Below are positions 1,286 through 10,405 of a DNA stretch of 39,990 nt, piece after piece. The notes beneath the pieces were generated by a model. That model worked only from the letters and a program-made list of their open reading frames with translations. It did no database searches and was not told the origin of the DNA. Both the position numbers and the translations under genes were made by a program. Position 1 is the first letter of the stretch, and every line of letters begins with the position of its first letter. Where the stretch lies: IMG/VR virus record IMGVR_UViG_641736163_000010, one strand, 5' to 3'. This DNA comes from a virus (lineage: Duplodnaviria; Heunggongvirae; Uroviricota; Caudoviricetes).

Positions 1286-1500
1286 AACCGCAGCACGTTC
1301 TTGCTTAAGACGTGCTGCGGCATAATCCCAATGATTACTCCCTGACAGGGTTCGTAGGCCACTCAATATCAGGTGCAGTTGATGTATCAACACGGTTCAG
1401 CAACACCCGATACTTTTTCCAGGCTTCCAGCAATGAGGTTTCTTCCTCCGTTACAATTTCCAGATCTGCAGCATCCTGAAGCGGCGCAATATGCTCACTG
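1286..1500. repeat. Direct repeat copy 2 (~220 bp; tfa 3' end plus 11-bp-stem hairpin at ~1288-1320)
   Basis: Near-identical to 236-460; hairpin ccgcagcacgt-N11-acgtgctgcgg lies between the convergent MTase and tfa stops. Confidence 0.7.
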
Positions 1501-1919
1501 GCTACCTGCATCAGGTTGTTTTTTGTTTCTTCCGCCTCCCGGATCCGGAACAGTTTTTCTGCTTCTGCATCTTTCACCCAGGTTGTGCCGTTCCACTTCT
1601 GAAACTCCCCTTCCGGCGATAACCAGGTAACATTTTCCGGTAATAAGCCGAGTTCAGAAATAAATAACGCGTCGCCGGAAGCTACGTCATAAACCGTTTT
1701 ACCCCGATGATCTTCAACGAGATGCCACGATGCCTCATCACTGTTGAAAACAGCCACAAAGCCAGCCGGAATATCTGGCGGTGCAATATCGGTACTGTTT
1801 GCTGGCAGACCTGTATGAGGCGGAATATATGCGTCACCTTCACCAATAAATTCATTAGTTCCGGCCAGCAGATTATAAATTTTTATGGTCCGTGCTTGTT
1901 CACTCATTCTGAATGCCAT
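1335..1919 (-). CDS. tfa: Tail fiber assembly protein Tfa
   Basis: 194 aa; [44 protein letters not shown]... is near-identical to lambda Tfa; start overlaps the stf stop (TAATG). Confidence 0.93.
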
Positions 1920-5907: not shown

Positions 5908-8900
5908 TCAGCTAATCGTGATGCCTGCAGTGGCTTTCTTCATCACCACAACCAGCAAATCGCTGATACTTGCTGTGGGATACCAGTTATTTACCAGCCA
6001 TGCTGACACCGAAAACTCCAGTGTCATGTGACCGTGACCGGCAGGCATATCAATAACACCACTGTAAATCAGCGTATTATCCAGCGCAGTACGGTTATAA
6101 ATTTCAGCACCGTTTTTCCGCACTATCAGACGGCATGAGGAGTAAATATCAGTATGCTCTTTCTCATGTTTAGCGCCGCTGAATGCCACCGCCGGAATAA
6201 CAATCTGCCGGTCAAACGGCTGATCGTCATAAACCCTGACGGTAATGGTTCCTGATGGCCACCGCTCCGGTGCACGGGAGTCCCGGGGGAAAGCTTTGCC
6301 CACTGTTTTAACGAGATCGCCTTCAATCTGGTTCGCGGACAATTTTCCCAGAACCCGACAGTTCTCGTTAATCGTGACGTTGTTGAGCGTCCCGGAGTTC
6401 GCATTCACGTTACCGCTGATATCGGCATTTTTCGCCGTCAGCCGCCCGTCCGGTGTCAGGGAAAATGCCGGAGGATTACCGCCGCTGGTAATGGTGGGAG
6501 CCGTCAGATATTTCAGGAACACTTCATTCATAAATATCTGATCGCCCTGACCAACAAACATCGGCTTTGTGTTGCCATTCGCAGGATTAATCATCGCAAT
6601 CCTGTCTGCCGCCAGCAGCACCTGACTCTGCATTCCTGCTGGCGTATTCTCAATACCGGCACCGATACCCGCAATATAAAGGCGTCCGTCCTGCATCTGC
6701 TGCAGTTTCACGGCCCACATGCTGTTCAGGTTATTATTTGTATCAACCTGAACTTTCTGTATCTGCTGGATTGCCGCACTCTGATTTTCCAGTTTTTTAT
6801 TGACGGTCTGCGTGATTTCATTGCTGACATTCGTAATGGACGTCCTGATTTCAGCCAGGTCCGGCGCAAGCTGACCGTTATCAATCTGCGTCCACAGCTC
6901 CTGGGCCAGATGTGTTTTCCCGATTTCTCCTTTGAAAAAATCCAGGTAACCTTCCGCATCATCGCTCGCCCGACCGACAGCCTCCACGAATGCCGATTTG
7001 CCAACAGTATTCACACTGCGGATATAAAAATAATAATCATGGCCCGGTTTGATATTGATACTGGCAGCTATCCAGTACAGCGCCGAGCCAAGATAGCGGG
7101 CTGCGGTTTCAACCTGCCTGATATCCGCAATCCGCTTTTCCGTGAACCAGAACTCAAACTGTACCGTCGGGTCATAAACGGCAAGATGCGGCGTGGCGGT
7201 TATCTGAAAATAGCCCGGCGTCAGCTCAATCCGCGACGGTGCTGCCGGTGCGGCAATCCGGAAGGTGGTGGTGGCAGGTTCACCCTGCTGGCCATAGCTG
7301 TTTATCGCCCGCACAGTCAGGGTGTATTCCCCGAGCGGCAGGCCGCTGAAACGGTGCTCCGTGTCTGCGGTGATGGCGGTGGTCACCAGTCTGGCATCCG
7401 TTCCCTTACCACTGGTCAGGCGCAGACTGAAGCGCACACCCTTCACCACCCGCGGCGTGTCCCATTTCGCCTGCGCCAGATACTGGCCGTCAGCTGCGCT
7501 CACCTCCACCGTCAGGTGCTGCACTGCCGGTGGGATGACGCTGTTCAGGGAACCTGACTGCGGCTCAAAGCGGGCACAGTTATCCACGATGGCTTCTTTT
7601 TCCGGTACGTGCTGCACCGCCGTGATGGCAAAGGTGCCGTCCGTGTTTTCCCGGACGGAGACACAGCGGAACAGGCGACGGCGCAGTGACGGCAGGGAGA
7701 GTCCCCACACCCCGTATGTCTCCACACCATCAGGCAGGGTACTGACCTGTATCCGGTCCGGCGCGGGGTGTTCGGTGATGTCCACACTCACTGGCTTACC
7801 GCTGCCGTTAATCAGGTTCACCGTGGCGGCACCGGTCTCCGGAAGTGTCACTTCACGGTCCAGCGTCAGGGTGCGGGTGGCAGCATCAATGGACAGGACA
7901 CGTCCGCCGGTCAGGGTCCCGGCATAGTCGTTATCACAGATTTCAATGATGTCACCGGGTGTGTGCCGCAGCCCCTGAGACCCGAGCGTGAAATCCACCG
8001 TCTGCGTTTCCAGCAGTTCGGTCTTTATCACCCACAGTCCGGCACGGTGGGCCTGACCGCGGCTGGTACAGCCGAACGCGTCCATCTTCAGCAGGTTGCG
8101 TCCGTAGCGCAGTATGGCTTCCGGGTCTTCCACCAGTTCCGTGGAGGTCTGCCAGCCGTTCTGCGGGTCGGTGTAATTCACCTCCACCGCCGTGTGCCGG
8201 TCCTTCAGGGCACTGAAGCTGTAGCGGAATCCCACGCCGTTATCATCCACCACCACATCGCTGTTGGTGTACGGCCACACCACATCCGACGGGCGGTCCT
8301 GCACGAACGTCAGCGTCTGACCGTTCCATACCGGCATACAGCGCATCGCAGAGCAGAAATCACTGAGAACGTCCCACGCCTTACGCTGTTGTGCCAGGTA
8401 CGCATTAAAGGTCATCCGCGGCTCGGTCCCCCCGAAACCATCCGGGACCGTCTGATCGCAGTACTGCCCGATGGCATACAGCGCCCACTTGTCCACATCC
8501 GCCGCCCCCAGACGTTTTCCCATGCCGTAGCGCGGGTGAGTCAGCATGTCCCACAGGCACCAGGCCGGGTTGTTGCTGTATGCCGGTTTCAGACTGCCGT
8601 CCCAGATACCACTGTACGTGCGTTTTTCCGGGTCATAGTTTGACGGCACCTGGATGATACGACCGCGGATATGGTAGTTCACCGTCATCTGCTGGCCGCC
8701 GAACTGCTCCGCATCCACCTGCAGCCCCACAATGGCCGTGTTCGGGTAGCACTGTTTCACATCGATGATTTCGGTGTATGACGACCACAGCGTCTTATTC
8801 TGCAGCTGGTCCGTGGTGCTGTCCGCCGTCTCCCTGACCATCCGGATGTTAAAGGGCCGGGGAGGCAGATTATCCAGAATCACCGAGGCCAGGAACTGTG

Positions 8901-9381
8901 AGGTGGTCTTGCCGTTAATGGTGACGTCCTTTTCTGTCACCCAGTTACCGTTACGCTGTAACTGAATCAGCAGGCGGACGGTTGCCGGGTTACGGTCACC
9001 CTTTGAGGTGGTCTCCACCAGTGACTGCACCCCGAAGGTAACCCGCAGGCGGTCAATGTTCGCGGACGTAATGGTGCGCGTCACCGGTTTTGCCTTCGTC
9101 ACTTCCACGCCCAGTCCGGTTTCAGCTCCGGAGGACTCAAAGCCTTCCGGTGGTGTCTGCTCCTGCTCCCCGGCACGCCAGACCGCGGTCACACCGTGTA
9201 TCACGGGATTACCGTCCGTGTCCGTCAGCGGGGTTTTGTTCACCAGAATACTCTGCAGTCCCTTCACCGGACCTTCTATCGGTCCCTCACCAATCGCATC
9301 AATCACACTCATCATCTGCGTGGATTTGAGATTATCCTTCGCCTCACGAGGCGTGTGTGCCTTACCGCCACCTTTTCCCAT
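5908..9381 (-). CDS. J: Host specificity protein J (central tail fibre/tip attachment protein)
   Basis: 1157 aa; N-terminus [39 protein letters not shown] is collinear with lambda gpJ; position between I and lom. Confidence 0.95.
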
Positions 9382-9487
9382 ACAGCCTTCCCCTGAATAA
9401 ATTAACCGCCACTTGCCATTCCGTACAGAAGTCGGATATCCTTCGCCCGAAAAGCATGAAACACATTTCTGCCATGCTAAAGAGAAA

Positions 9488-9519
9488 CCCCGGTATCAGC
9501 AGATACCGGGGTTTTCTTT
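9488..9519 (+). terminator. Intrinsic terminator-like hairpin in I-J intergenic insert (10-bp stem ccccggtatc/gataccgggg + TTTTCTTTC); partly bidirectional
   Basis: Perfect 10-bp stem with 4-nt loop followed by a T-run on the plus strand; the minus strand also has TTTCTCTTT after the stem. Confidence 0.5.
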
Positions 9520-9586
9520 CATGCCCACCGATAATCCTGTTGGTTAAAACCGGTAATGGCATAAAAATTCTGAATATCTTCACATT

Positions 9587-9614
9587 TTCACACACTGACT
9601 GTGGCGCGTATAAT
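9587..9614 (+). promoter_or_regulatory. Candidate sigma70 promoter (TTCACA-16 bp-TATAAT) inside the I-J intergenic insert
   Basis: Near-consensus -35 and consensus -10 read from sequence; points away from the phage late operon. Confidence 0.4.
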
Positions 9615-9620
9615 TTCTCT

Positions 9621-9718
9621 GCGTTAATTTTTTTGTCGTGATATAAGAATAATTCCTTACACTTAATCTTCGTAACTCTCCCGCAGTTCCTGTCCGCGAT
9701 CACTGCGGGATTTTTTTA
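9621..9718 (+). ncRNA. Candidate ~100-nt small RNA (promoter-to-terminator unit, no ORF)
   Basis: Bounded by the 9587-9614 promoter and the 9680-9718 terminator; no ATG-initiated ORF in between; located in a ~340-bp I-J gap that lambda itself lacks. Confidence 0.3.
9680..9718 (+). terminator. Rho-independent terminator (cccgcag...ctgcggg + ATTTTTTTATT)
   Basis: 7-bp GC-rich stem flanking a 16-nt loop, followed by T7 on the plus strand. Confidence 0.5.
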
Positions 9719-9724
9719 TTCTTT

Positions 9725-10405
9725 TTACCCCTGCCGCCCGATAACCACGACCTTCCCGTCACCGCCTTCATCACGGGTACTGATGTCCTGGGATATACGG
9801 CGGGAGCCAACCAGCATTTCCCCGTAAGGCACCGGCATCGGGTTCCCCTGGGCAATCATGTTATCCAGCGAGGAAAAGTACGTGTTCTGTCTGCCGTTAT
9901 CCGTTGCGCGGTAATCCGGTGTTTTTGCCTTCGGGGCCAGCATCTGGGCCACACCGCCCAGAATCATGCTGGCTCCAAGTGAAAACAGCATCGTGGTGGC
10001 AGAAAAACCACCGGCTGCCAGGGCTGAACCCCATAACGCCATTGATGCCCCGGCAGTGAAGAAAGAGCCCACGATGGCTGCCGCCCCCAACACAATCTGC
10101 AGTCCACCCTTTCCGGCCCCGGCCAGTCGCGGCACAATGTGGATGACCGTTCCCTCACCCAGCTGTTCGTGAAGGCGGGCGTACACCACCTCCGGTGCCG
10201 TGTCTTCACCGGCAATACGTATCTGGTACCAGCCTTCGTTCATCTGAAGGCGAAAGCCCGGCATCTGCATCGACAGGGCGCGAATGGCTTCCGCTGCCGT
10301 GTTCACATACAGGCTGAGGCGGCGGCCAAATCGTTGTAAATCCCCGTGAAGGCAGATGTGTGCCAGTGGCGGTGACGCCAGACAGAATGCGTTCGTCGTT
10401 GCCAT
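9725..10405 (-). CDS. I: Tail assembly protein I
   Basis: 226 aa; MATTNAFCLASPPLAHICLHGDLQRFGRRLSLYV... and C-terminal ...NTYFSSLDNMIAQGNPMPVPYGEMLVGSRRISQ match lambda gpI; Gly/Ala-rich hydrophobic middle. Confidence 0.92.
   Translation of the reverse strand: MATTNAFCLASPPLAHICLHGDLQRFGRRLSLYVNTAAEAIRALSMQMPGFRLQMNEGWYQIRIAGEDTAPEVVYARLHEQLGEGTVIHIVPRLAGAGKGGLQIVLGAAAIVGSFFTAGASMALWGSALAAGGFSATTMLFSLGASMILGGVAQMLAPKAKTPDYRATDNGRQNTYFSSLDNMIAQGNPMPVPYGEMLVGSRRISQDISTRDEGGDGKVVVIGRQG

Follow-up and report, generated by a model that had tools for sequence, protein, structure and literature searches.

The DNA analysed here, referred to as the window, is a stretch of 39,990 nucleotides whose minus strand carries the tail part of a lambdoid prophage. 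The tail genes I and J are separated in it by 343 bp, compared with 60 bp in lambda (I end 15444, J start 15505), in agreement with a preliminary description of this DNA that had noted a gap of ~340 bp, larger than that of lambda. The features of the junction, together with one Rfam element in the flank, are as follows:

1378-1576, minus strand: IS009 (Rfam), full length, 221 bits, downstream of the tail fibre region
5908-9381, minus strand: tail tip/host specificity protein J (phrog_31, E = 1e-110, N-terminal 200 aa)
9382-9724, no strand assigned: I-J intergenic region, 343 bp, a mosaic of J-proximal module, promoter, sRNA body and terminator
9488-9519, no strand assigned: 10-bp G+C-rich hairpin with T-rich runs on both strands
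9562-9586, plus strand: A/T-rich stretch upstream of the -35 box, ATAAAAATTCTGAATATC, kept in a nine-allele alignment in which the RNA bodies differ
9587-9614, plus strand: sigma-70 promoter TTCACA, 16-nt spacer, TATAAT, matched at 11 of 12 positions
9621-9717, plus strand: predicted sRNA of ~97 nt, PasB/EcOnc22 family, allele B, with the start at G9621 placed from the position of the -10 box
9645-9653, plus strand: AAGAAUAAU, three A-R-N repeats, a candidate Hfq distal-face motif
9653-9659, plus strand: UUCCUUA, a conserved single-stranded block resembling the anti-Shine-Dalgarno sequence
9663-9673, plus strand: UUAAUCUUCGU, a conserved single-stranded block
9680-9717, plus strand: intrinsic terminator CCCGCAG/CTGCGGG with a 16-nt loop, an A and U7, from a terminator scan and folding
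9725-10405, minus strand: tail assembly protein I (phrog_32, E = 2e-78; phrog_4244, E = 1e-85)

The gene at the position of J in a matching locus (L001) is annotated as gpJ in RefSeq. J is 1,157 aa long in the window and 1,230 aa in strains 7/2 and CFT073 (L001 2308-6000), and the I-J gap of these strains is identical to that of the window despite the differing length of J. The J gene is itself mosaic downstream of the junction. Over the first 25 kb of the window the closest genome is E. coli 55989, with 97.9% identity across 98% of that part; a match of 99% or more to the whole window was found in no genome.

The 343-bp gap sequence is present in 1,669 of 5,426 complete E. coli genomes, and among the RefSeq and GenBank matches listed there is no annotated feature over it. 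The preliminary description had seen no credible ORF here, and a protein-coding reading of the gap was rejected: the three mechanically called ORFs that cross it have no PHROG match, and the predicted transcript has no ORF of more than two codons. Short 'hypothetical proteins' are annotated inside the junction in ASU11 (L091 1481-1681), where the call spans the J-proximal hairpin module, and in 1720a-02 (L092 1551-1703) and PhiR12_4 (L094 1223-1321), where the calls are antisense to the sRNA gene or its promoter. These are probably miscalls, since the equivalent ORFs of the window match no PHROG family.

Predicted promoter, transcript and terminators in the I-J gap

The TTCACA-16-TATAAT sequence had been put forward as a near-consensus promoter, and the match was confirmed at the stated coordinates. 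It is the sole site with at least 11 of 12 matches on either strand of the whole window, where first-order Markov simulations give an expectation of 0.53 such sites per window and ~0.005 per 343 nt. The A/T-rich stretch immediately upstream is possibly an UP element.

From the promoter to the terminator, the predicted transcript measures ~97 nt. This accords with the plus-strand unit of ~100 nt, antisense to the late operon, that had been described, and the homologous locus in other prophages produces such an RNA (see below). The published 5' end of the homologue PasB, taken from read coverage, corresponds to ~9636 in the window and would give an RNA of ~82 nt. Homologues measure 83-85 nt on Northern blots, compared with the ~97 nt predicted here; transcription may begin downstream of G9621, or else the RNA may undergo processing.

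The second plus-strand terminator of the preliminary description is present as claimed, with arms CCCGCAG (9680-9686) and CTGCGGG (9703-9709) followed by an A and then T7 (9711-9717). It ends 8 nt from the I stop codon. Because no T-run follows the stem on the minus strand, this terminator should not stop late transcription. The same region (9680-9717) is the probable Hfq-binding 3' module. In single-sequence folds the 5' 60 nt of the sRNA are essentially open, and the RNA outside the terminator is predicted to be largely unstructured. A-R-N runs are found at the place equivalent to 9645-9653, with differing sequences, in PasB (AGUAACAAAAACAAC) and in the Sakai allele (AAAAAUAAC). The A-R-N run and the U-tail would fit an sRNA that contacts both faces of Hfq. 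The two conserved blocks between 9653 and 9673 form a candidate seed region, and since UUCCUUA resembles the 3' end of 16S rRNA, it may pair with Shine-Dalgarno regions. The sequence and predicted folds of the window allele show a terminator, a U7 tail, an A-R-N run and an unstructured body, and the allele is a candidate for an Hfq-dependent, trans-acting sRNA.

A first terminator-like hairpin with a 10-bp stem had also been noted at 9488-9519, and it is present there. The arms CCCCGGTATC (9488-9497) and GATACCGGGG (9502-9511) enclose the loop AGCA and are followed by TTTTCTTT (9512-9519); the fold has a free energy of -27.2 kcal/mol on the plus strand (z = -7.8) and -28.3 kcal/mol on the minus strand (z = -5.7). 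A simple terminator scan did not list this hairpin. We suppose that the stem is lengthened by the A and T runs on either side of it, which uses up the T-tail. By its sequence, the structure resembles a bidirectional terminator or an insulator. It may also modulate the expression of J, as the preliminary description had suggested.

The hairpin is part of a J-proximal stretch of 164 bp (9382-9545), which 1,443 records share with an identity of at least 99%. This stretch occurs at a median of one place per genome (maximum four), in the same 1,445 genomes as the full gap; a dispersed repeat was therefore rejected. The window-type J-proximal module is seen together with either allele of the RNA. 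In EPEC and Sakai the J-proximal module is an unrelated and shorter one, with another hairpin (CAGGCACC...GGGTGCCTG) followed by TTGTTTTT on the late-sense strand, so that both modules place a late-sense terminator-like hairpin between the sRNA promoter and J. Compared with window positions 9471-9517, the module of two loci (L026 and L088) lacks exactly the CCCCGGTATC hairpin, the deletion lying between two TTTCT repeats, which marks the hairpin as an indel that can be dispensed with. Most simply read, it is an insulating bidirectional terminator that arrived with a separate recombination module. RNA polymerase modified by Q, as in lambda, reads through terminators, and such polymerase should ignore the hairpin.

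Homology to PasB and to EcOnc22-24

PasB (E2348CN_0006) is an RNA of 83 nt from prophage PP6 of EPEC O127:H6 E2348/69 (Pearl Mizrahi et al. 2021, PMC8550237). It is encoded on the minus strand at NC_011601 1466343..1466261, antisense to its neighbours, and was probed with AATCCCGCAGTGATCGCGGAGCT (PMC8550237 table S6). Northern blotting verified it at the size predicted from read coverage, its stability is Hfq-dependent, and its level is higher when cells grow under the non-activating condition (PMC8550237). RIL-seq gave 37 interactions, in 30 of which the partner is a CDS or 5'UTR region, and PasB is nearly always the second RNA in the chimeras, as sRNAs are (PMC8550237). A seed just upstream of the terminator has been proposed from conservation (Zhu, Shabalina and Storz 2026 preprint).

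In the E2348/69 genome the end of I is at 1466255 and the start of gpJ at 1466496, with PasB between them on the opposite strand; PasB therefore occupies the same junction, in the same orientation, as the window unit. A 26-nt promoter core is identical in the window, in EPEC PasB and in 87 IMG/VR stretches, and the A/T-rich upstream stretch of PasB is identical too. The two genes also agree in the GCGUUA at the start of the RNA, in the U-run, in the CCCGCAG/CTGCGGG stem of the terminator and in the U7 tail. When the Northern probe for PasB is reverse-complemented, 20 of its 23 positions agree with 9690-9712. The published difference that sets PasB apart from PasB-2 at position 27 was recovered as C/A in our allele table, which confirms the register of the alignment. 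An IS009 match in the flank, as found in the window, has likewise been reported for PasB loci (Zhu et al. 2026 preprint).

The 5' parts of the two RNAs have 44 identical positions (over 59 nt in the window and 65 nt in PasB), the window allele has 5 nt more in its terminator loop, and the J-proximal module of the window is unrelated to that of EPEC and ~100 bp longer. With only 44 positions shared over the 5' part, the targets of the window RNA, and possibly its stability, could differ from those of PasB. The longest exact match between the window allele and the 83-nt PasB is 25 nt. The 2026 survey of PasB used blastn with a word size of 28 and a query coverage of >75% (Zhu et al.). With the 83-nt PasB as query, word size 28 returned no match in the window, and word size 11 returned the 25-nt match, 30% of the query; the window allele is consequently outside the survey criteria, and so outside PasB as strictly defined by them. 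It has the features of a broader PasB/EcOnc22 family, namely the junction and strand, a homologous promoter, and a terminator with at least six U.

In O157:H7 Sakai, EcOnc22 (Sp15), EcOnc23 (Sp14) and EcOnc24 (Sp11) are Hfq-CRAC peaks and mutual homologues; EcOnc22 is ~85 nt on a Northern blot and is destabilised in an hfq deletion (Tree et al. 2014, PMC4104026 table S2). On the current Sakai record, NC_002695.2, the coordinates of all three fall on the plus strand of I-J gaps, antisense to the late operon, and each of the gaps of Sp11, Sp14 and Sp15 holds the same gene frame as the window. The published coordinates refer to an older Sakai record, and taken at face value the peaks start 22-24 nt from the respective J starts. 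With an old-to-new shift of +139 to +143, measured at AgvB1 only, the EcOnc22 peak lies at ~2902853-2902917, within the predicted RNA at 2902836-2902926. Given a shift taken from this one other locus, the EcOnc peaks appear to map onto the RNA body. The Sakai allele can be aligned to the window sequence at ~70% identity, and differs from it in a weaker -10 box (CAATAAT), in the 5' region and in the terminator loop.

The position, strand, promoter and terminator of the window unit are homologous to those of the PasB and EcOnc22-24 loci. A link between PasB and EcOnc22-24 is absent from the EPEC table (PMC8550237), the 2026 survey and a 2021 review; EPEC PasB and EHEC EcOnc22-24 look like one gene family. 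The proposal of an Hfq-type prophage sRNA at this junction is supported in that the homologous locus yields an Hfq-dependent RNA in both EPEC and EHEC Sakai.

Other families were compared. A scan of the whole window at Rfam gathering thresholds placed no family in the I-J region, a permissive scan of 9300-9800 gave weak terminator-like matches only, far below the cut-offs, and the window sRNA corresponds to no family of Rfam 15. AgvB/AsxR (RF02702, RF02703) resemble the window unit in being prophage-encoded, moron-type insertions. They are Hfq-binding, and their alleles, like those of the PasB family, combine a conserved 3' terminator module with a more variable 5' part containing A-R-N. However, they are 51-60 nt long, lie 3' of PR' and are unrelated in sequence. 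AgvB/AsxR and PasA/C/D were rejected as relatives, being located 3' of PR' near the lysis genes rather than in the tail operon. The window sRNA likewise differs in position, length and sequence from the anti-sRNAs, which are defined by GUAUCUCAUGC...UUGCCCGAACCCAxUCGGGC in the 3' region. The svsR RNA of prophage NC-SV, positioned at the 3' end of cI, is unrelated.

Alleles and distribution of the family

Alleles were collected with a promoter pattern, a seed-to-terminator pattern and BLAST of phage records, giving >150 loci with at least 50 different transcripts. When 33 distinct alleles were aligned, the near-invariant parts were the 5' GCGUUA with the U-run after it, AAyUCCwU, wAAUCUUCrU, the CCCGCAG/CTGCGGG stem and the AU7 tail, with AUCUU itself invariant and its flanks nearly so. 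Variation is seen in the segment that follows the U-run, in the spacer ahead of the stem and in the loop of the terminator. The invariance of AATCTTC and of the stem is partly built in, because the second collecting pattern required both; the stem is also invariant in the set collected by promoter. RNAalifold on the 33 alleles found no compensatory changes, and returned only the terminator, the invariance of which comes partly from the collecting pattern.

The promoter, comprising TTCACA, the A/T-rich upstream stretch, a TATAAT-like -10 box and the GCGUUA start, aligns across nine alleles. The sequence between promoter and terminator diverges, but these two elements themselves remain identical. 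Some relatives have a weakened -10 box (the Stx2a_WGPS8 type, GATATCATT) or have lost the promoter wholly. The preliminary description had asked for a comparison with related prophages and had held that motifs not conserved among them would speak against it; the promoter and terminator proved to be conserved in >100 phage loci.

The 86 nt that directly follow the -10 box (9615-9700) were found in 800 of the 5,426 genomes and are at least 99% identical in 612 records. CFT073, S88 and strains of the ATCC 25922 lineage have the window allele in identical form, and a variant of ~94% identity is present in Stx1a- and Stx2c-converting phages. The PasB distribution in the literature, obtained with a word size of 28, probably misses the ~800 complete E. 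coli genomes with the window allele, including model uropathogenic and neonatal-meningitis strains. A literature search for an sRNA at the I-J locus in uropathogenic strains found nothing relevant.

A scan for the family signature in one genome per species gave 16 matches, of which 13 are unrelated generic terminators; the other three are on small contigs that resemble E. coli phage contamination, and the scan found no host outside Escherichia. The contigs in question are 460-3,442 bp long and belong to assemblies of Streptomyces flavalbus (L112), Parendozoicomonas haliclonae (L108) and a Clostridiales MAG (L115). Assembly contamination is the most likely explanation for all three.

Several loci carry tandem pairs of differing PasB-family alleles, either 226-230 bp apart (L141, L209) or 674-676 bp apart (L148, L210, L216, L217). 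The pair in L141 is directly downstream of gene I. In 18 loci, including L153 and L118, there is a PasB-like body without the TTCACA/TATAAT promoter. In L153 and L118 the body starts at about base 1664-1667 of the reverse-complemented locus. The promoterless body is ~100 nt downstream of a same-strand sodC-like ORF (Cu,Zn superoxide dismutase) that has its own hairpin terminator; in these loci the sRNA may arise from the 3' region of sodC, or the gene may not be expressed. The presence of the sodC-like gene in loci of this type makes the I-J junction a moron hotspot. Lambdoid morons, as described in PMC4104026 from Juhala et al. (2000), are extra DNA between conserved genes with their own promoter and terminator, as in the window, and can be expressed from a repressed prophage. 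The window differs from them in having a non-coding RNA, not a protein, as its cargo; some relatives have the sodC-like protein gene at the same site.

The window carries a diverged and unannotated representative of a prophage sRNA family that is known and has been detected by experiment, and the kind of element is already represented by PasB in EPEC and EcOnc22-24 in O157. What is new is modest: the allele class missed by the published criteria, a link between PasB and EcOnc22-24 that the papers cited above do not draw, and the description of a conserved frame with a variable body. The RNA is unannotated among the matches listed and has no Rfam model, and several phage records call what are probably spurious short proteins in its place. 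The practical value of the result is in annotation and family bookkeeping; the known mechanism of such RNAs is unchanged.

Proposed function and alternative explanations

Taking these data together, we consider it probable, with good confidence, that 9587-9717 on the plus strand is a self-contained moron gene for a regulatory sRNA of the PasB/EcOnc22 family that acts as follows. The near-consensus sigma-70 promoter would fire in the lysogen, apart from the Q-dependent late operon and antisense to it. The product would be an RNA of ~85-97 nt, A/U-rich and mostly unstructured over its 5' two-thirds, with a terminator hairpin of 7 bp, rich in G+C, and a U7 tail at its 3' end. Hfq would bind the U-tail and the internal A-R-N run, and the RNA would thereby be stabilised. 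Hfq would also aid pairing in trans of UUCCUUA and UUAAUCUUCGU with mRNAs of the host and the prophage, probably within or close to ribosome-binding sites. The seed may well be located in these blocks, and the outcome may be repression at the ribosome-binding sites. RNA size and Hfq dependence are known from the E2348/69 and Sakai alleles only, and multiple RNA partners from PasB; by analogy, the diverged window allele would be expected to behave like these homologues.

Alternatively, the RNA could act mainly in cis. Being complementary to the I-J spacer of the late polycistronic mRNA, and made by convergent transcription, it would lower or time the expression of J after induction, either by transcriptional interference or through RNase III cleavage of a ~97-bp duplex that begins 8 nt past the I stop codon. 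The geometry guarantees perfect antisense complementarity, the gene is kept at exactly the I-J junction in many otherwise mosaic lambdoid phages (sometimes as two tandem copies), and the two unrelated J-proximal modules agree in having a late-sense terminator-like hairpin between the sRNA promoter and J. On the other hand, lysogens express PasB without induction, and 37 other RNAs form chimeras with it in an Hfq-dependent way; dependence on Hfq is a common trait of sRNAs that act in trans. A sodC-like gene, in the same orientation, can also occupy the junction, which speaks for a permissive site over a position-specific role, and terminators are known to be read through by Q-modified polymerase. 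Because of the Hfq dependence, the trans partners of PasB and the sodC-like gene at the site, we regard cis action as unlikely to be the main function. Another alternative is that the gap is a decayed insertion remnant, in which promoter- and terminator-like motifs persist without function. This would account for the lack of an annotated feature among the matches listed and of an Rfam match, for the absence of covariation, and for the weakened -10 box or lost promoter of some relatives. It does not sit well with a promoter of 11/12 matches that is unique in the window, with a promoter and terminator that are identical while the body diverges, or with homologues that were detected and found Hfq-bound in two strains. 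Given the selective conservation of promoter and terminator and the two independent experimental detections of homologues, a remnant is very unlikely indeed.

It is also conceivable that the hairpin at 9488-9519 is the functional element, as a late-sense attenuator of J or as the terminator of a second plus-strand transcript from 9413-9442, and that the PasB-like unit is secondary. The hairpin is very stable, with T-runs on both strands, and the surrounding 164 bp are highly conserved in the 1,443 records cited above. In addition, 9449-9522 on the plus strand adopts a two-hairpin, sRNA-like fold (-31.9 kcal/mol, z = -7.3). However, the sole candidate promoter for such a transcript is TTGCCA-18-TATCCT (9413-9442, plus strand), which has 9 of 12 matches, and matches of this quality occur at chance level (3 found against 1.1 expected in 2 kb). 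A second small plus-strand transcript (9413-9522) is possible but unsupported. The hairpin is moreover cleanly absent in L026 and L088, and the whole module is absent in EPEC and Sakai, which still make the sRNA. A primary role for the hairpin is distinctly improbable.

The I-J junction might be a cassette site. Here, RNA bodies that can be exchanged for one another would be set between a promoter and a terminator/Hfq module that are both fixed, in some cases as tandem pairs and in others fused behind a sodC-like gene, and the window allele, which is common in extraintestinal strains such as CFT073, would control other host mRNAs than PasB does. We put this forward tentatively, as a possibility that we rate as rather unlikely. 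Were it true, an added cis action on the I-J late mRNA during induction might link the physiology of the lysogen to tail production.

Elsewhere in the window there are two tandem copies of STnc100 (RF02076; 132 and 138 bits) on the minus strand at 31857-32045 and 32321-32514. Genes for tRNA-Arg(tcg) (32779-32855) and tRNA-Met(cat) (32865-32940) adjoin them on the same strand. STnc100 is related to PasD (Zhu et al. 2026 preprint).
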